Source: a virus
Lineage: Duplodnaviria; Caudoviricetes
DNA: 64,000 nucleotides
IMG/VR virus record: IMGVR_UViG_3300032270_001157
Span: 1-64,000 of that record
Strand: one strand, 5' to 3'
Below, in pieces: positions 2 to 6,652 of the stretch. The notes under the pieces are model-generated. The model was given only the letters and a program-made list of their open reading frames with translations. It did no database searches and was not told where the DNA came from. The position numbers were made by a program, and so were the translations under genes. Positions within the stretch are counted from its first letter, which is position 1; every line of letters begins with the position of its first letter.

Positions 2-574
2 TTTGCTGGACGAAAACAATCTGGTAAAACCACATGCTCAGAAGCCACTCTTGCCTATTTTAAATCATTAGGTGGTAAATCAGGGAAGATATATAATTTT
101 GCTGATCCTCTTAAGCAAGATATTTGTGTTAATATTTTGGGCTTAACTCACCAGCAATGTTATGGCGAAGATGTAGATAAGAATACCATGACAGATATTG
201 TATGGGAAGGTAAAAACCTAACGGCTAGAGAAGTTATGCAATTTGTGGGAACTGATTTATTTCGTAAAATGAAAAACGATGTCTGGACTAGTGCTACCCT
301 TAACAAAATTAATCAAGACAAGCCAGACCTAGCTATTATAGCTGATTGTCGTTTTCCTAACGAAGTAGAAGCAGTTCAATCCGCTGGTGGACTAGTCATA
401 AAGCTCAATAGAAATCCCTATAATTCTACACATGCCAGCGAGACAGCACTAGATGTTCTGGTATATCCTCAAAATCTTTTTGATCTATTTGTACCCAACG
501 AATTATTAGATATTCCAACCCAACTCGATCTTATCCTTTCTTTTCTGCAACACAAAGGGGTGTTCTCATTATAG
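2..574 (+). CDS. Deoxynucleoside monophosphate kinase (5'-truncated by window edge)
   Basis: The frame is open from nt 2 (FAGRKQSGKTTCSE, P-loop), upstream of the track ORF at 137. It also has NFADPLKQ, REVMQFVGTD and IIADCRFPNE, typical of phage dNMP kinases. Confidence 0.88.
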   Translation, partial: FAGRKQSGKTTCSEATLAYFKSLGGKSGKIYNFADPLKQDICVNILGLTHQQCYGEDVDKNTMTDIVWEGKNLTAREVMQFVGTDLFRKMKNDVWTSATLNKINQDKPDLAIIADCRFPNEVEAVQSAGGLVIKLNRNPYNSTHASETALDVLVYPQNLFDLFVPNELLDIPTQLDLILSFLQHKGVFSL

Positions 575-641: not shown

Positions 642-1160
642 ATGAAACAAAAACACATCATTACTAAAGACTACTTATTAGAACACTATGTCAAACAAAG
701 AAAACCAGCACAACAAATTGCTAAAGAATTAAATATTTCATCAAAAACTGTAGTGCTAAGGTATTTAAAAAAATATAAGATAAAACCAAATAGTAGATTT
801 GGCAAGGCTAAAAAAAATACAATAAAATATGGAGAAATACACAGGTCTTACTTATATCTTCTAAAAAATAGAGCTCATAGAAAAAATTTAACTTTTAATC
901 TTAATGGAGATTATTTATGGAAATTATTTTTGAAACAAGACAAAAAATGTTCATTATCTGGAATTGAATTAAATTTTCCAGAAGCCTGGGGATCCAAATC
1001 TAAAACACATATTACCGCATCTTTAGATAGAATAGATTCTAGCAAAGGATATGTTGTTGATAATGTGCAATGGGTACACAAAACAATAAATACTATGAAA
1101 ATGGATATGTCAGATAAACAATTTATTTCCTTATGTAAAATGGTAGCTAATAATAAATGA
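642..1160 (+). CDS. Free-standing HNH-type homing endonuclease with N-terminal HTH
   Basis: HTH-like AQQIAKELNISSKTVVLRYLKKY and C-terminal ASLDRIDSSKGYVVDNVQWVHKTINTMK. ATG 642 is preferred because AAGGA lies at 631-635. Confidence 0.8.
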   Translation: MKQKHIITKDYLLEHYVKQRKPAQQIAKELNISSKTVVLRYLKKYKIKPNSRFGKAKKNTIKYGEIHRSYLYLLKNRAHRKNLTFNLNGDYLWKLFLKQDKKCSLSGIELNFPEAWGSKSKTHITASLDRIDSSKGYVVDNVQWVHKTINTMKMDMSDKQFISLCKMVANNK

Positions 1161-2197
1161 TAATTACATACTTACGAAGCTCTAGTTATAGCACTCATTC
1201 TATGTGCCCCATGCAATATATGTTTGAATATATTCTTGGATTACGATCTCCTTCTAATAAGAAAGCAGATAAAGGCACTATTTGTCATAAGGCGCTAGAA
1301 ATTTTAGCGTTTATTAAACTAAATACCCAAAATAATAATCCGATTTTTGAAGATGATGTTGTTGGAACAGTAGATATTAATAATTACAGTATCACCACCA
1401 TCACTGATCAAGTATATAAGTATTATACTTCTCAATTCACTCATCATATATGGGAGCCAAAAGACCATAAGGATTGTCATGCATGGATTAAGAAGGCCCT
1501 AGAATATAATAAGGGTATGTTTGATCCTAGAAATAGACATATTGTTCAGCCAGAGCAACGCTTTGATCTTGAGATCAAGAAACCTTGGTCATCCTACCGA
1601 TATGAAACCAAAGATGGAATCCTCGAAGGGAATCTTGCTATCAAAGGAACTATTGATCTTATAACTAAGGTTAATGATAATACTCTAGAAGTTATTGACT
1701 GGAAAACGGGAAGAAGATTAGACTGGGCAACTGGGGAAGAAAAGACCCTAGAGAAATTACAAAACGATCCTCAATTAAGAATATATCATTACGCAATTCA
1801 ACATATGTATCCGGAGATTGAACATGTAATGATATCTATTAATTTTATTAATGATGGTGGGGCATTTACTATTTGTTTTGATAAGACTGATTTGTATAAA
1901 ACAGAAATTATGTTAAAACAAAAATTTGAAACTATTAAAAATACCCAAAAGCCACAATTAAATAAAAGCTGGAAATGTAGTAAATTATGTCATTTTGGAA
2001 AAAGCACATTTGCTAATAGTCCAATAGAACCATTAATAGAATATAGAGATGGTCAACTAACATCTAAAGATCAATGTATGACCAAGTGTGAACAAGTTAA
2101 GCATGATGTAGACACAACTGGAATGAAAGCTGTCATTGACAAGTATCAGGCTCCCGGTTATAGTATAGGTCACTACAAGGCACCCGGCACCGTATAA
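1157..2197 (+). CDS. PD-(D/E)xK exonuclease, Cas4/AddB/RecB-like
   Basis: SSYSTHSMCP, GTICHKALE, IKGTIDLI..EVIDWKTG, QLRIY and a C-terminal CSKLC. Flanking Cys residues suggest an Fe-S cluster. Confidence 0.85.
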   Translation: MIITYLRSSSYSTHSMCPMQYMFEYILGLRSPSNKKADKGTICHKALEILAFIKLNTQNNNPIFEDDVVGTVDINNYSITTITDQVYKYYTSQFTHHIWEPKDHKDCHAWIKKALEYNKGMFDPRNRHIVQPEQRFDLEIKKPWSSYRYETKDGILEGNLAIKGTIDLITKVNDNTLEVIDWKTGRRLDWATGEEKTLEKLQNDPQLRIYHYAIQHMYPEIEHVMISINFINDGGAFTICFDKTDLYKTEIMLKQKFETIKNTQKPQLNKSWKCSKLCHFGKSTFANSPIEPLIEYRDGQLTSKDQCMTKCEQVKHDVDTTGMKAVIDKYQAPGYSIGHYKAPGTV

Positions 2198-2236
2198 TAT
2201 TTTGGATAAAACAACTAAATAAGGAGACAATTAGAT

Positions 2237-2281
2237 ATGGACATGACTAGAGGATATGTGCCTCTGCATGTCCATTCTTAG
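2237..2281 (+). CDS. dnaE: 14-aa N-terminal fragment of DNA polymerase III alpha (MDMTRGYVPLHVHS-stop)
   Basis: AAGGAG at 2221-2226 precedes ATG 2237. The peptide is the canonical DnaE start (F/Y)VxLHVHS and ends at TAG 2279-2281. It is not in the ORF track. Confidence 0.85.
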   Translation: MDMTRGYVPLHVHS

Positions 2282-2288
2282 GTGGGCT

Positions 2289-4130
2289 ATGTACTCACTT
2301 TTGGATGGACTTTCGCAGCCAAGAACTATTGCTGAAAGATGTCAAGAGATAGGAGCAACTTCTTGTGCATTAACAGATCATGGTAATATTGCTGGATCAG
2401 TTAAGTTTTATACAGAAATGAAAAAGAAGGGCATCAAGCCTATTCTTGGGTGTGAGGTTTATCTTTGCGATCAAGATCCTAAGATTAAAACCAAAGAGAA
2501 TAAAGACTTAACTCACTTCGTTATTCTAGCTAAGAATTATGAGGGGTGGAAGAGTCTTATTAGAATTGTATCCGAATCTAATCAACCAGATCATTTTTAT
2601 CATAAACCCAGACTAAATATCGAAACTCTTGCACAATATTGTAATAATAATATTATTGGATTTTGTGGTCATGCTGGATCTTACTTAGCAGATAAGATTA
2701 GTGAGAATAATCAGTTGATTGGAGACTGGAGAAATATTGGTATTGACCAAATTGGTAAACTTAAAGACATTTTTGGTAAGGATAATTTCTTCTTGGAGGC
2801 ACAATTGATGGATTCGGTCAATTCTCCTATTCAAACAGTTTTAACTGGTGCTATGAGGGATTTGGCCAAAATTACCAATACAAAAATCATTTCCACGCCA
2901 GACGCTCACTATTGCCGTAAGGAGGACGCTGTAGATCAAAGGGTGCTTCTCTGTAATAATTTAAAAACGACCTTCCCAGAGATCAGCAGAAAGATTAGCA
3001 ATGATGAGGAAGTGCCTCTTGGGTGCTTTTTTACATCCGACAACTTCCATATCCTGTCTTCAGAAGAAATGGGTCATTTTCATACCGAAGAAGAAATGGA
3101 AAATACCAAGCTAGTAGACGCATTGTGCGAAAACTATAATATCTTGGATAAGCCACATTTGCCTCCCTTTCCTTGTCCAGACGGGGCTAATCCAGATGAA
3201 TATCTAAGGCAGTTGTGTCGTAATGGATGGAGAGATAAAATTGCCAATGTTATAGATAAAGATCTTCAAAATGATTATGTGAATAGAATTAAGTACGAAC
3301 TAGAGGTTCTACAAGGAGCAGATCTTTCTAGCTACTTTTTAATAGTACAAGATATCGTCAATTATGTAAGAAGTAATAACTGGCTTCCGGGACCGGGAAG
3401 AGGTAGTGCAGCTGGTTGTTTGGTTTCTTACTTAATTGGTATTACTAGTATTGATCCTATCAAATATGGTTTATTGTTTGATAGATTTTATAATGCTGGA
3501 CGAAATAGTAAAGATCATATCTCTATGCCTGATATTGACGTAGACGTACCGATTAATAAGAGAGAAAATGTAATCGAATATATTAAGCAGTGTTATGGGG
3601 CTGATAAGGTTTCTCAAATGATTACATTTAATACTATTAAGGGTCGTGGAGCTATTAAGGACGTATTAAGAGTCTATGGTAATATATCTTTTGATGAAAT
3701 GAATAAGATTACTAAAAGTATTCCAGATGAAGCTAAAATTGCTGATGATCTTCAAGAAATGAAAGAAGAAACTGGCGAAGCATCCATTATTCGATGGGCA
3801 CTTGAAAATGAGCCAGATAAACTGAAAGAATGGTGCTATATAGATGAAAAAAACGAATTGCAAGGACCGCTTGCCAAACGATTTGAGCAGGCTATTAGAT
3901 TAGAAGGTACTAAGTCTAATCAGTCTAAACATGCGGCTGGTATTGCAATTAGTGCTCAACCATTAAATACTCTGTGTCCTATGGTCTATGACTCAAAAAA
4001 TGATCAACTCATAGCTGGTATGGAGATGCAGGATTTAGAAGCGTTAGGTATTATCAAGTTTGATATTCTTGGGGTGGCAATGTTAGATAAAATTATGACT
4101 ATTCAAGACATCTTAGCAAAAGGAGACTAA
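2289..4130 (+). CDS. dnaE: DNA polymerase III alpha, PHP + palm/thumb part
   Basis: MYSLLDG, ALTDHGN, GCE, YHKPR, TPDAHY, GPGRGSAAGCLVSYLIGIT, MPDIDVD, HAAG, KFDILG. The track start at 2256 (MCLCMSILRWA) is not DnaE-like. Confidence 0.95.
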   Translation: MYSLLDGLSQPRTIAERCQEIGATSCALTDHGNIAGSVKFYTEMKKKGIKPILGCEVYLCDQDPKIKTKENKDLTHFVILAKNYEGWKSLIRIVSESNQPDHFYHKPRLNIETLAQYCNNNIIGFCGHAGSYLADKISENNQLIGDWRNIGIDQIGKLKDIFGKDNFFLEAQLMDSVNSPIQTVLTGAMRDLAKITNTKIISTPDAHYCRKEDAVDQRVLLCNNLKTTFPEISRKISNDEEVPLGCFFTSDNFHILSSEEMGHFHTEEEMENTKLVDALCENYNILDKPHLPPFPCPDGANPDEYLRQLCRNGWRDKIANVIDKDLQNDYVNRIKYELEVLQGADLSSYFLIVQDIVNYVRSNNWLPGPGRGSAAGCLVSYLIGITSIDPIKYGLLFDRFYNAGRNSKDHISMPDIDVDVPINKRENVIEYIKQCYGADKVSQMITFNTIKGRGAIKDVLRVYGNISFDEMNKITKSIPDEAKIADDLQEMKEETGEASIIRWALENEPDKLKEWCYIDEKNELQGPLAKRFEQAIRLEGTKSNQSKHAAGIAISAQPLNTLCPMVYDSKNDQLIAGMEMQDLEALGIIKFDILGVAMLDKIMTIQDILAKGD

Positions 4131-4132
4131 TC

Positions 4133-4330
4133 ATGGCAATGCAAAAGTTTATGGACGTAGCAATCGGTGCAACTTTTAGACACGAAGGTAATGATTACCG
4201 AAAAATTCCAGAGGAGAGAATTAGCTGTTGTTCAGCTATTAATGCTCAGGGAATCAATAATGATCAACAAAGAATTCAAGTTTTACCATTAGTAGAGGTC
4301 GAAGTCCTAGGAGATACCACCCAAGCATGA
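4133..4330 (+). CDS. Small hypothetical protein (65 aa) between the dnaE halves
   Basis: AGGAG SD at 4121-4125. Its stop overlaps the next start (ATGA). Confidence 0.75.
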   Translation: MAMQKFMDVAIGATFRHEGNDYRKIPEERISCCSAINAQGINNDQQRIQVLPLVEVEVLGDTTQA

Positions 4331-5028
4331 TTAATTACAACAAAATTTGTGTGTTTGATTTTGAAACAGATGGCTCGGATCCAAAATCTTGTAGTCCTGT
4401 TCAAATTGCGGCAGTGATTATTGATCCTTTAAAATTGGAGATTGTTCCCAATTCTGAATTTAATATCTTTTTTAAACCAGAAGTATTATCGAATGATGAG
4501 CAATATCAGTATACCACAGATATCTTAGACTTTCATGCTAAGGTAAGAGGTTCCTCAAAAGAAGCTATCTTAGAAGAATGGAAGAAGTACCCTGCTCAAG
4601 ATCAGTCTTGGAAATTGTTTACCAACTATCTAACAATGCATCATACTCGGTCTAGCAAAAAGAGCCAATTTAGCGCTCCTATTGCTGCTGGTTACAATAT
4701 CAATAGATTTGACTTGCCAATTATTGATAGGTTAAGTCGTAAGTATGGCAATACAAATAAGGAAGAACGAAGTGATATTTTTTATCCCAGAGACGTATTA
4801 GATATTATGAATCTAGTATTCTATTGGTTTGAAAACAATGGAGATCTAAAAAATCTTTCTTTGGATACTCTTAGAGATTATCTAGGTATAAATAAAGAAG
4901 GGGCTCACGATGCTTTAAAAGACGTTAAAGACTGTGCAGAAATTTTGATTCGTTTTATGCGGCTACATCGTAATCTAGGTAATAAAATTAAGTTTAAGGA
5001 TTCATTCCAGTCACCATCACATGTCTAA
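4327..5028 (+). CDS. dnaQ: DEDDh 3'-5' exonuclease (DnaQ/epsilon-like)
   Basis: ExoI FDFETDG, ExoII GYNINRFD and ExoIII HDALKDV. Confidence 0.9.
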   Translation: MINYNKICVFDFETDGSDPKSCSPVQIAAVIIDPLKLEIVPNSEFNIFFKPEVLSNDEQYQYTTDILDFHAKVRGSSKEAILEEWKKYPAQDQSWKLFTNYLTMHHTRSSKKSQFSAPIAAGYNINRFDLPIIDRLSRKYGNTNKEERSDIFYPRDVLDIMNLVFYWFENNGDLKNLSLDTLRDYLGINKEGAHDALKDVKDCAEILIRFMRLHRNLGNKIKFKDSFQSPSHV

Positions 5029-6652
5029 AAAATTTCAATATAGTTGCGGATGTTCTTTTGATGTTCTGTCTGAACATGATGACAAAGACAGGATGACTCT
5101 TAAATTTAATCCAAAAATAGAAGAGATTAGTTTGGAGTGTCAGAAGACTTGGGATCTAATTTCAGATGGAAATACCAAGGGGTGTTTCCAATTGGAGTCT
5201 AGGCTTGGTAAATCTATGGCTAAAAAATTAAAGCCAGAGAATATCGAACAGCTTTCTGCCTTAATTAGTATTATGAGGCCGGGATGCTTGGAAGCTTTTA
5301 GAGATGGTAAATCAGTTTCTAACCATTTTATAGATAAAAAGAATGGTCAAGAATCGGTAGACTATTATCATCCGTCTTTAGAGCCTATTTTAAAGGGGAC
5401 ATATGGTGAAATGATTTATCAAGAGCAAGCTATGGAAATTGCTAAAATCGTAGCTGGCTTTGATCTTCAAGAAGCAGATATGTTAAGAAAAGCTATTGGT
5501 AAGAAAAAGCCAGAAGAGATGGCTAAGATTAAGATTAAGTTTTTAGAAGGTACAGAAAAAGTTGGAACAGTAGCCACTTCTCAGGCAGAAGAAATTTTCG
5601 GCTGGATTGAAAAGTCTCAGAGATATTCTTTTAATAAATCTCATGCCGTTAGTTATGCTATTAATAGTTATTTGTCTGCTTATACTAAGGCTCACTTCCC
5701 CAAGATCTTTTTTGCAGCATACCTAAGATTTGCAAAAGACAAGATTGATCCAAAAGCAGAGATTAAAGAATTGGTGCAGAATGCTAATGAAATGGATGTT
5801 TCTGTTTGTATACCAGACATAAGAAACTTAAATCAACTATTCATCCTCAAAAATAATAAGATCTATTTTGGCCTAACAGACATTAAAGGTTTCGGACAGT
5901 CTGTGTTTGACAAATTGGTTAAACTGAAAGAAGAGAAGAAGCTAGATTTTGACACAATGAACTGGATAGAAATGCTCATGATGGTTTTGATCAATATCAA
6001 TTCTACATCTGCTAAAGCATTAATACAAAGTGGTGCAATGTCATTCTTGGGTAAGAACAGGGTGGCTATGCTATTTGAATTTGGTTTAGTATCAGAGTTA
6101 ACTAAAAAAGAATCAGACTTTATTATAGCTAATCTATATAAATATAAATCAATAGGAGATGCTCTTCATGATCTATACCATAATGGAAAGTCTAATAAGA
6201 ACAGAAAAGCTATTATACTGGATTTAATTAACAGTCATAACAAACCGCCGTATTCTTTAGAAGACAATCCAGACTGGATCGCTGATGCTGAAGATGCCTT
6301 TTTAGGATGCAGTATCACATGTTCCAAAGTTGATATGTATGATATCACCATGACTAATACCACCTGTAAAGACTTTAAAAATACCACTCTCAAAGACAAT
6401 ATTTTGTTGTGTGGAGAAATTGAAAGTGTGGGTGTTACTAAAACTAAATCTGGTAAGACACCGGGACAAGAGATGGCGTTTGTTACTATGAGTGATGGCA
6501 CAGGAGTAATAGACTCTGTTGTATTCTTCCCAGAAGCCTACAAAGCTTATCGAAATATTTTATTTGATGGTAATGTTATTATTGTAAAGGGCAACAGAGC
6601 AAAGTCTGGCGACTCGCTAATAGTTGAAAAGACGTATATTCCTAAAACTTGA
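5021..6652 (+). CDS. dnaE: DNA polymerase III alpha, fingers/HhH/OB part
   Basis: TKGCFQLES, IMRPG, IYQEQ, ADMLRKAIGKK, YSFNKSHAVSY, FGLTDIKGFG and the OB fold EMAFVTMSDGTG. Confidence 0.95.
   Translation: MSKKFQYSCGCSFDVLSEHDDKDRMTLKFNPKIEEISLECQKTWDLISDGNTKGCFQLESRLGKSMAKKLKPENIEQLSALISIMRPGCLEAFRDGKSVSNHFIDKKNGQESVDYYHPSLEPILKGTYGEMIYQEQAMEIAKIVAGFDLQEADMLRKAIGKKKPEEMAKIKIKFLEGTEKVGTVATSQAEEIFGWIEKSQRYSFNKSHAVSYAINSYLSAYTKAHFPKIFFAAYLRFAKDKIDPKAEIKELVQNANEMDVSVCIPDIRNLNQLFILKNNKIYFGLTDIKGFGQSVFDKLVKLKEEKKLDFDTMNWIEMLMMVLININSTSAKALIQSGAMSFLGKNRVAMLFEFGLVSELTKKESDFIIANLYKYKSIGDALHDLYHNGKSNKNRKAIILDLINSHNKPPYSLEDNPDWIADAEDAFLGCSITCSKVDMYDITMTNTTCKDFKNTTLKDNILLCGEIESVGVTKTKSGKTPGQEMAFVTMSDGTGVIDSVVFFPEAYKAYRNILFDGNVIIVKGNRAKSGDSLIVEKTYIPKT

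Follow-up and report, generated by a model that had tools for sequence, protein, structure and literature searches.

The window analysed here (64,000 nt; positions 1 to 64,000 of the IMG/VR virus record IMGVR_UViG_3300032270_001157; Duplodnaviria, Caudoviricetes) carries a single dnaE gene, and the features that surround its start are collected in Table 1. A short leader ORF, which begins only 39 nt downstream of a PD-(D/E)XK gene, is separated by a coding gap from the long ORF that encodes the N-part of the polymerase, and this gap sits between the HVHS and M-YSLLDG segments of the dnaE PHP motif. An AAGGAG-like run is found at the position of the leader Shine-Dalgarno (SD) sequence in most of the interrupted variants listed. 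When the Pfam PHP profile was applied, an intact homologue covered profile positions 2-162, and the body ORF of the window only 8-162; the leader appears to supply the PHP strand that is absent from the body ORF. In annotation, the only replicative polymerase of these phages is routinely given an internal start (ORF 2256 or 2289), and an ORF called in this way therefore lacks two PHP metal ligands.

Table 1. Features at and upstream of the dnaE start in the window
Feature	Position	Strand	Description and basis
Free-standing HNH/His-Me endonuclease-like gene, N-terminal HTH	642..1160	+	PHROG 3322/1035/3118, E 1e-25 to 4e-14
Shine-Dalgarno sequence AAGGAG of the leader	2221..2226	+	10 nt 5′ of ATG 2237; read in the sequence
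Leader ORF, 14 codons (MDMTRGYVPLHVHS), proposed true DnaE N-terminus	2237..2278	+	Ends in UCU 2276-2278, the proposed take-off codon
5′ leader hairpin	2237..2275	+	AUGGACAUG 2237-45 with CAUGUCCAU 2267-75, C2247-G2266, AGAGG 2249-53 with CCUCU 2261-65; loop 2254-2260
Hairpin, proposed take-off stem-loop	2270..2310	+	Outer stem, UU/UU internal loop, inner stem, loop 2287-2293; folds and variant comparison
10-nt coding gap UAGGUGGGCU	2279..2288	+	Opens with stop UAG 2279-2281, at the base of the inner stem; proposed landing GCU 2286-2288 at its top
dnaE N-part body (PHP and pol III alpha palm)	2289..4130	+	Resumes with M-YSLLDG, +1 frame relative to the leader

An insert at exactly the same codon boundary was found in 76 IMG/VR contigs, which correspond to about 50 distinct cassettes. 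Taken alone, one 10-nt indel right at the beginning of a metagenome-assembled gene might be put down to an assembly or sequencing error, or read as the mark of a decaying pseudogene. However, the same architecture recurs in these 76 independent contigs, in many samples and with proteins that diverge by up to ~35%, the 613-aa ORFs that follow are intact, compensatory changes are present (see below), and the window has no other dnaE; we regard a non-functional gene as almost certainly the wrong explanation. Searches of 50,697 deposited phage genomes with blastn and tblastn detected no relative above 35% protein identity, and therefore there is no cultured carrier to name. A scan of genome contigs gave one true match, to a contig of 8 kb in the bin of a Chitinophagia MAG. 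This is insufficient evidence for naming a host, and strong SD usage in the phage argues against Bacteroidota. In the literature we found no published description of the dnaE gap/hairpin cassette.

In intact homologues exactly one codon lies between HxHS and [YF]SLLDG, and this spacing is fixed in all 58 intact loci (39 distinct). Among the interrupted relatives the gap measures 6, 8, 9, 10, 11 or 12 nt, so that all three frames are represented and therefore no single frameshift or readthrough event fits. A mixture of conventional recoding events could be envisaged, i.e., a +1 shift for the 10-nt gaps, a -1 or +2 shift for the 8- and 11-nt gaps and readthrough for the 6-, 9- and 12-nt gaps, which would leave 2-4 extra residues in the PHP motif; UCU-UAG-G does resemble shifty-stop +1 sites, and AGGUGG could act as the SD stimulator of prfB reportedly does. 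Nevertheless, three different mechanisms would be needed at one homologous site, and the extra residues would fall between metal-ligand strands whose spacing is fixed in the intact loci. Furthermore, three cassettes (L090/L098, L112) have a TGA inside the gap in the dnaE frame, so that +1 shifting at the take-off site is excluded there, and the gap covaries at the RNA level, with no sign of conservation as coding sequence. To such a mixture we give hardly any credence. Code reassignment was rejected because all three stops occur and the frames differ. In addition, tRNA genes are absent from the whole 86-kb record, and therefore no phage-encoded Ser or suppressor tRNA is involved.

Both ends of the gap are constrained. 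In a complete scan with a pattern that carried no stop requirement, a stop codon opened the gap in 64 of 64 dnaE matches (TAA 32, TAG 30, TGA 2). The last triplet of the gap was NCN in all 34 distinct cassettes: in 25 it was a Ser codon (TCT 13, TCA 9, TCC 3), matching the Ser take-off codon, and in nine it was ACU or GCY. In this window, GCU as the proposed landing triplet and UCU as the take-off codon agree at only two of three positions, and one relative (L062) reads UCU-UAA-UCU, which has the look of a textbook stop-hop. If the gap were instead removed from the mRNA, be it as a micro-intron, by an endonuclease plus a ligase or by editing, a hairpin would present the two cut sites and the message would then be read conventionally. 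The hairpin described below does put both gap ends on one helix, and gap length would be free to vary, but neither the obligatory stop nor the Ser-like end triplet would be explained. The Rfam search gave only a chance-level match on the other strand (E 0.62, 20.5 bits versus a gathering score of 50), and excision of 6-12 nt from a bacterial or phage mRNA is not known to us from any system. Removal at the RNA level is thus very unlikely.

A hairpin across the gap had been drawn by eye in the first-pass annotation, and RNAfold (input 2265-2315) returned exactly this geometry both as the MFE and as the centroid structure, at -20.5 kcal/mol. It consists of an outer stem of 8 bp with one G-U (GUCCAUUC, 2270-2277, with GGAUGGAC, 2303-2310), a 2x2 UU/UU internal loop (2278-79/2301-02), an inner stem of 7 bp with two G-U (AGGUGGG, 2280-2286, with CUCACUU, 2294-2300) and a 7-nt loop, CUAUGUA, that contains AUG 2289. 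Of the take-off codon, U2276-C2277 lie in the outer stem, and of the stop, A2280-G2281 lie in the inner one. None of 200 dinucleotide shuffles of 2265-2315 folded as well (mean -8.6, sd 2.4; z -4.9), and when synonymous codons were redrawn, with the amino acids and the insert unchanged, 0 of 5000 shuffles were as low as the observed -19.3 kcal/mol (mean -8.0, sd 2.8); because the variants are kin, the shuffle controls overstate independence. When a 151-nt context was folded, the inner stem was kept, but GUCCAU paired with the upstream AUGGAC of the leader start. Hence, the outer stem is one of two competing pairings. Averaged over 50 variants, the fold with the leader hairpin forced had -26.0 kcal/mol versus -24.7 kcal/mol with the outer stem forced, i.e., the two folds are near iso-energetic.

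The competing 5′ leader hairpin spans the whole 14-codon leader and shares GUCCAU with the outer stem. Its pair 27-53 (alignment A1) was GC in 26, AU in 12 and GU in 3 variants, with none unpaired, and pair 25-55 was AU in 28 and GU in 13; this tolerance of G-U points to sense-strand RNA rather than DNA as the selected form. With synonymous shuffles, 36 of 5000 reached the observed energy of this hairpin. Its mean was -17.9 kcal/mol in interrupted and -1.1 kcal/mol in intact genes, and that of the take-off hairpin was -18.0 kcal/mol in interrupted genes versus -3.8 kcal/mol in intact homologues; GATGGAC was present in 45 of 53 interrupted but only 3 of 39 intact cassettes (p 2e-14). The two hairpins are peculiar to interrupted genes.

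For the inner stem, anchor-based folding and a swap test replaced MAFFT column counts, because two pairing registers (UAG with CUA, UAA with CUU) are misregistered in MAFFT columns and a column count understates the stem. The pair at the third base of the Ser codon was UA in 23, AU in 4, CG in 3, GU in 2 and UG in 2 cassettes, and UGA stops co-occurred with a CUC Leu codon. When inserts and coding segments were swapped, cognate pairs had -5.77 kcal/mol versus -3.72 (sd 0.26) for permuted ones, and 0 of 2000 permutations were as low. The outer stem showed no double changes among the variants, i.e., it was conserved without covariation, and since most variants were found by patterns that fix GTCCAYTCY and YTGGAYGG, the invariance of its arms is partly imposed. 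RNAalifold returned only this invariant outer stem, with no covariation term, which is not evidence against the other helices, as these either contest the same bases or are misaligned. The insert therefore pairs and covaries with the downstream Y-S-L codons in a hairpin confined to interrupted genes, which bears out the suggestion of the first-pass annotation that a structure has been selected and not a random error; the covariation to be looked for in homologues was found in the inner stem and was absent from the outer one. The fold itself stands, and what that account overlooked was the competing, covarying 5′ leader hairpin and the conserved landing triplet atop the inner stem.

The leader is constrained as protein too. 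Its final eight codons read Y-x-P-L-H-V-H-S in 50 of 50 variants, and because seven of these eight positions are invariant while five synonymous Leu codons are used, the leader shows purifying selection at the protein level. The leader is 13-14 codons long, and its first 5-6 residues vary (MDM/MDV/MGV...); these variable residues are dictated by the RNA pairing, and the remainder is an ordinary PHP strand.

Two mechanisms had been offered for the hairpin, namely that a ribosome terminating at the UAG melts the stem and makes DnaE synthesis dependent on the leader, or that the stem drives bypass. By the first, a 14-aa leader peptide would be released at UAG, the hairpin would melt and translation would restart at AUG 2289 by means of AGGUGG, so that DnaE either lacks the HVHS strand or is complemented by the peptide in trans. 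The arrangement in this window is suggestive, with the stop, the SD-like AGGUGG (2280-85, 5 nt before AUG 2289) and the AUG all within 13 nt and the AUG in the loop, and in 13 of 34 cassettes there is an ATG or GTG in frame. However, 21 of the 34 distinct cassettes have no in-frame ATG, GTG or TTG between the stop and the YSL codons, and an SD-like 4-mer is present in only 6 of 34 and absent from 28. An ATG at residue x is common in intact homologues also, where this codon is ATG, CAY or ACW, and the loop AUG is simply the residue-x codon. Furthermore, reinitiation leaves the conserved NCN/Ser triplet before x unexplained and sits poorly with protein-level selection on the PHP residues of the leader, and we know of no precedent for a 14-aa trans-acting strand. 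Termination followed by restart does not generalise, then, and we consider it unlikely as the mechanism of the family; the SD-like run in the stem and the AUG in the loop, which the first-pass annotation had stressed, are incidental to this sub-lineage. The restart context in this window is good, which is not so in most relatives, and some reinitiation may take place here. Since the SD-like run and the loop AUG are not conserved, bypass is favoured over restart, and of the two proposals it is the one that fits the family.

We propose that the hairpin is probably the take-off stem-loop of a programmed short translational bypass over the gap, a reading that we hold with reasonable confidence; the joined DnaE product is predicted from the sequence. 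Ribosomes would start at AUG 2237, read 14 codons to the Ser codon UCU 2276-78 and then meet UAG 2279-81, buried at the foot of the inner stem, without terminating. The peptidyl-tRNA-Ser would release UCU, the mRNA would slip by 10 nt, and the anticodon would re-pair with GCU 2286-88 atop the stem (two of three positions). Decoding would resume at AUG 2289 to give ...PLHVHS-M-YSLLDG..., identical to uninterrupted homologues, and the tryptic peptide predicted to span the junction of this hop product is GYVPLHVHSMYSLLDGLSQPR. The two hairpins may act in turn: GUCCAU would first be held by the downstream AUGGAC, in the outer stem ahead of the ribosome, and after take-off the upstream AUGGAC of the leader could capture GUCCAU as it leaves the ribosome. 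As the 5′ hairpin zips up, it would then draw the mRNA onward, in the manner of the ‘exiting-mRNA driver’ that has been suggested for T4 gene 60. Against such a hop stands the nascent chain of 14 residues with its variable N-terminus, in which there is no counterpart of the gene 60 peptide signal that holds peptidyl-tRNA, so that drop-off could be high. The imperfect GCU match of this window and the nine cassettes with ACU or GCY as landing triplet also count against it.

The cassette is associated with HNH endonuclease genes. Of 85 interrupted loci, 17 have an HNH gene directly next to the leader (11 full-length, 6 remnants), and of 58 intact loci none has (p 9e-5); in the three lineages with ORFs listed (L038, L119, L140) this gene overlaps the leader start by 10-17 nt. 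In this window the endonuclease-like gene lies one gene upstream of dnaE and is not adjacent; it is related to the leader-abutting endonuclease genes of some relatives, and tblastn found the same site occupied in both interrupted and intact relatives. Pfam gave HTH matches only for this gene and no endonuclease name, which came from PHROGs and from annotated Streptomyces-phage homologues. Interrupted and intact states are patchy on the tree, with at least 11-15 changes. A co-conversion tract, which would show as a surplus of similarity among interrupted genes immediately 3′ of the gap, was found in none of the segments compared (II 0.60-0.68 versus IU 0.59-0.67), and hence the case for mobility of the cassette is drawn from the patchy tree and the HNH adjacency, which echoes that of T4 mobA and gene 60. 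Most likely, the cassette had its origin in an HNH homing-endonuclease element, or moves together with one, and the gap would spoil the element's own target site; in this window the endonuclease gene is no longer adjacent. By analogy with the MobA system (10.1101/2022.08.31.505936), the endonuclease would cut the uninterrupted target and the gap would protect against cutting.

More tentatively, and at slightly less than even confidence, the cassettes could form a widespread natural family of programmed hops of 6-12 nt that use all three stops and no nascent-peptide signal, in which bistable hairpins hand GUCCAU from a downstream to an upstream partner, and which arose independently of T4 gene 60 as a self-immunity mark of HNH homing endonucleases. 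If so, homing endonucleases and bypass gaps would be linked a second time, independently, and ‘endonuclease plus bypass gap’ would be a general means by which the most strongly conserved coding sequences are invaded. The system is minimal (a cassette of ~75 nt with a 14-codon leader and a gap of 6-12 nt), and its ~50 natural variants are a ready mutational series in take-off codon, stop identity, gap length, landing triplet and the two hairpins. With such a family it could be tested directly whether mRNA that refolds behind the ribosome is able to drive slippage in the forward direction when no nascent peptide acts as an anchor.

To our knowledge, T4 gene 60 and its homologues are essentially the only cases in which programmed bypassing has bench proof; for yeast mitochondrial byps and phiHau3 the indications are strong. 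Synthetic ‘stop-hops’ in E. coli are reportedly inefficient. In these constructs a stop lies between matched codons, and 9 nt yield one amino acid (Weiss et al. 1987, as given in PMC5009743); a 2016 recoding review expected natural stop-hops and knew of no natural in-frame one (PMC5009743). The UCU-UAA-UCU of L062 has exactly this form. However, the dnaE cassettes are natural and conserved and have two dedicated hairpins, and most would hop more than 6 nt and change frame. In the terminase gene of Streptomyces phage phiHau3, blocks of 10-nt inserts were proposed to be bypassed at UUA, with some experimental support (PMC10732093). The two cases have in common a phage gene, disruptive inserts of ~10 nt, a predicted hairpin that brings the landing codon near to the take-off site and a 5′ stem-loop. 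In phiHau3 the trigger is the rare sense codon UUA, with a developmentally limited tRNA and a regulatory role, whereas in dnaE it would be a stop codon, with a link to an HNH element. The byps of Magnusiomyces mitochondria resemble the dnaE cassettes in their matching take-off and landing codons and in being short, mobile and hairpin-forming; they are reportedly 27-55 nt long, GC-rich and spread over many genes of one mitochondrial genome, in contrast to one site in one gene of many phages. Byps are short mobile hairpin inserts in coding sequence that ribosomes skip (PMC5009743; PMC5462505).

In T4 gene 60 a stop lies next to the take-off codon, a hairpin forms around take-off with an apical part that holds the stop in the A site, and there is a 5′ stem-loop (PMC5462505; 10.1101/2024.12.09.627546); its HNH gene and the N-terminal extension overlap in different frames (10.1101/2022.08.31.505936). 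The dnaE cassettes share with it the stop directly 3′ of the take-off codon, the hairpin around that codon with the stop in its apical part, the second stem-loop 5′ of take-off that can form from exiting mRNA, and the proposed landing triplet directly 5′ of the resume codon. Also shared are a short element-encoded N-terminal extension with a re-encoded conserved segment before the gap, an HNH gene that in some relatives overlaps this extension out of frame, and a patchy occurrence among close relatives with endonuclease genes decayed or lost. In contrast, the gap is 50 nt in gene 60 and 6-12 nt in dnaE, the take-off tRNA is Gly there and Ser here, and a 46-aa nascent chain with an essential signal is replaced by 14 aa with no conserved peptide signal. 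Furthermore, the dnaE cassettes have no conserved SD-like element before the landing site, their landing codon is not always matched, and their target is the dnaE PHP motif instead of a topoisomerase, with no sequence similarity between the two. Finally, it is only in dnaE that the take-off hairpin and the 5′ hairpin contest one shared GUCCAU.

The parent phage record is 86 kb long, of which the window (34% G+C) is the first 64 kb; no tRNA genes were found in either. The dnaE gene is preceded by a short leader ORF (see the table below). In all 50 variants compared, the last eight leader codons specify Y-x-P-L-H-V-H-S, through five synonymous codons for Leu and two each for Pro, His, Tyr and Ser, and the Pfam PHP match starts at profile position 2 in an intact homologue (i.e., a dnaE free of the insert) and at position 8 in the window's body ORF, so that the leader encodes PHP strand 1 together with both His ligands of that strand. 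The body ORF scores 10 bits below the intact homologue with this profile. The polymerase is also split as proteins (2289-6652, + strand), with tight overlaps between all parts, and the order N-part, 65-aa ORF, exonuclease and C-part is kept in nearly all relatives.

Features of the dnaE region in the window
Feature	Position	Strand	Remarks
dNMP-kinase-like gene	2-574		upstream of HNH-like gene
HNH/His-Me endonuclease-like gene	642-1160	+	free-standing; N-terminal HTH; PHROG 3322/1035
PD-(D/E)XK nuclease gene	1157-2197		downstream of HNH-like gene
Shine-Dalgarno AAGGAG	2221-26	+	strong SD, upstream of start at 2237
Leader ORF, MDMTRGYVPLHVHS	start 2237, UAG stop 2279-81	+	14 codons
dnaE body ORF	AUG 2289	+	613 aa, begins MYSLLDG; ten bases past codon 14 of leader, +1 frame; PHP and pol III alpha domains
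dnaE N-part	2289-4130	+	PHP + palm
65-aa ORF	4133-4330	+	no family
DEDDh exonuclease	4327-5028	+	RNase_T-type
dnaE C-part	5021-6652	+	fingers, HhH, OB

A protein-guided search of viral contigs yielded 80 loci, at which the dnaE N-part shares 58-98% identity with that of the window. All 58 intact loci (39 distinct sequences) carry exactly one codon (ATG, CAY or ACW) between HxHS and [YF]SLLDG, and the others carry extra bases at precisely this junction. Pattern scans enlarged the set to 76 contigs with ~50 distinct cassettes, in which take-off codon, insert and resume codon occur in 34 different combinations, with inserts of 6, 8, 9, 10, 11 or 12 nt; by sequence comparison, the insert is a family trait. 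When a complete scan left the first triplet unspecified, 64 of its 72 matches lay in dnaE, and a stop codon opened the insert in every one of these (TAA 32, TAG 30, TGA 2). Each of the 34 cassettes has a Ser TCY codon before the stop and C as the middle base of the final insert triplet, which is itself a Ser codon in 25 (TCT 13, TCA 9, TCC 3) and ACT, GCT or GCC in the remainder; the L062 lineage reads UCU-UAA-UCU. The two UGA cassettes (loci L194, 5986-6025, and L199, 3292-3331; gap TGAGTGTCA) have CUC as the downstream Leu codon, a C of which pairs with the G of UGA; in both a full-length HNH gene abuts the leader. Among 185,579 prokaryote genomes the sole match was a TAAGTGAACT cassette (L315, RFVO01000077.1, 1285-1323). 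The 8-kb contig that carries it had been assigned to a Chitinophagia MAG, probably as phage DNA caught up in the binning, and gives a weak host hint.

The gap is probably crossed by a programmed short hop, with the hairpin at 2270-2310 as the take-off stem-loop. The peptidyl-tRNA-Ser would let go of UCY, the mRNA would slip by 6-12 nt, and the tRNA would re-pair on an NCN triplet. This one mechanism fits all variants, and its predicted product gives back the intact-homologue sequence; removal of the gap at the RNA level is very improbable, and an artefact or pseudogene is scarcely credible. The first-pass annotation, which is partly supported, had proposed, besides a selected structure, which is confirmed, and possible bypass, which is likely, that the SD-like sequence and AUG of the hairpin couple dnaE synthesis to the leader. 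However, ahead of the conserved YSL codons 21 of the 34 cassettes lack any ATG, GTG or TTG in frame, and just 6 have an SD-like 4-mer, so that restart at the loop AUG cannot be general, and termination-reinitiation is unlikely. Nor can frameshifting be general, since every frame is represented among the gaps and the target frame of three cassettes contains a TGA; a mixture of frameshift and readthrough has a slimmer chance still than RNA-level removal. In L090/L098/L134 and L112 the TGA lies within the gap (…AAG TGA ACT ATG; …AGG TGA TCT CAC), and +1 frameshifting at their take-off site was ruled out by this TGA in the dnaE frame.

As to the hairpin itself, the pairing drawn by eye for 2270-2310 proved exact, i.e., the RNAfold MFE and centroid were both the same two-stem structure (-20.5 kcal/mol, z -4.9 vs dinucleotide shuffles), and none of 5000 synonymous recodings folded as low (-19.3 vs -8.0, sd 2.8). 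As had been noticed, the inserted bases pair with downstream coding sequence, namely the Tyr-Ser-Leu codons, over 5-8 bp in 36 of the 37 distinct sequences, all but the 6-nt gap, with a cognate folding energy of -5.77 kcal/mol vs -3.72 (sd 0.26) for permuted partners (0/2000 permutations as low). Inner-stem pairs change together, at the Ser (UA 23, AU 4, CG 3, GU 2, UG 2) and Tyr (GC 14, AU 10) third positions and at the stop/Leu codons (UAG with CUA, UAA with CUU, UGA with CUC), so that shuffle controls and covariation agree with the earlier view of a selected structure. The foot of the inner stem holds the stop codon, and at its top the landing triplet enters the closing pair with its first base and opens the loop with the other two; therefore, the proposed hop would span exactly the 5′ arm. 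The outer stem, which is the RNAalifold consensus, is 94.5% paired over 41 sequences, among which no double changes were found, an invariance partly imposed by the search patterns. This stem is supported independently by the Asp-Gly-Leu codons, spelled GATGGAC in 45/53 interrupted vs 3/39 intact cassettes (p 2e-14), the final AC having been left free by the patterns in all scans but one.

A second structure, absent from the first-pass annotation, was found in the leader, where AUGGACAUG, located at the start codon, forms a helix with CAUGUCCAU (His-Val-His codons) that AGAGG/CCUCU lengthens, so that the entire leader forms one hairpin. Its mean energy is -17.9 kcal/mol in interrupted vs -1.1 in intact forms, with non-overlapping ranges, and its pair 27-53 (alignment A1) is GC in 26 sequences, AU in 12, GU in 3 and unpaired in none, i.e., G-U is tolerated. 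GUCCAU is common to this hairpin and the outer stem, and the two conformers are nearly iso-energetic (means -26.0 and -24.7 kcal/mol, respectively). When UCU occupies the P site, the ribosome would cover the 3′ arm (15 nt) of the leader hairpin but not the 5′ arm, and zipping might pull out roughly the number of bases that the hop requires. The take-off UCU (2276-2278) can also pair with AGA 2233-2235, just 5′ of the start codon, adding 3 bp beyond a 1-nt bulge; this extension is not conserved among relatives.

Interrupted and intact forms are intermingled on the DnaE tree (78 distinct proteins), which requires at least 11-15 state changes. Of 85 interrupted loci, 17 have the leader directly at the end of an HNH/His-Me endonuclease gene that encodes an N-terminal HTH (eleven full length, six remnants of 36-80 aa); in the three lineages with ORFs listed, this gene overlaps the leader start by 10-17 nt. 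None of 58 intact loci has a gene inserted at this site (p 9e-5). In the window just 39 nt separate the PD-(D/E)XK gene from the leader. Homologues of the HNH-like gene at 642-1160 lie at this intergenic position in relatives of both kinds, interrupted and intact (L051/52, L149, L116/132), which marks it as a putative second homing site near dnaE; L008/9 hold a 48-aa remnant there. The intact locus L079 (about 2960-3010) encodes Val-His-Ser by GTC CAT TCC, as in interrupted forms, and L022/23/25/58 have a longer N-terminus (MTMPSY..., starting ATGACCATG); both are possible scars left when a cassette was lost ('hit and run'). No co-conversion signal was found 3′ of the gap.

Full-text literature searches returned no report of dnaE bypass, and a 2016 review described short gene 60 counterparts as long presumed and natural stop-hops as unknown (PMC5009743). 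The nearest published case is the terminase of phiHau3, in which the inserts are 10 nt long and UUA is the trigger (PMC10732093). In T4 gene 60 the stop adjoins the take-off codon, a hairpin surrounds that codon, its apical part keeping the stop in the A site, and a 5′ stem-loop is present (PMC5462505), with exiting-mRNA pairing as proposed forward driver (10.1101/2024.12.09.627546); the stop, proposed take-off hairpin and 5′ stem-loop of the dnaE cassette correspond to these parts, as would its exiting-mRNA pairing. The HNH gene abutting the dnaE leader, full length or as a remnant, mirrors the MobA element, in which the endonuclease has also decayed and been lost with the gap retained (10.1101/2022.08.31.505936).
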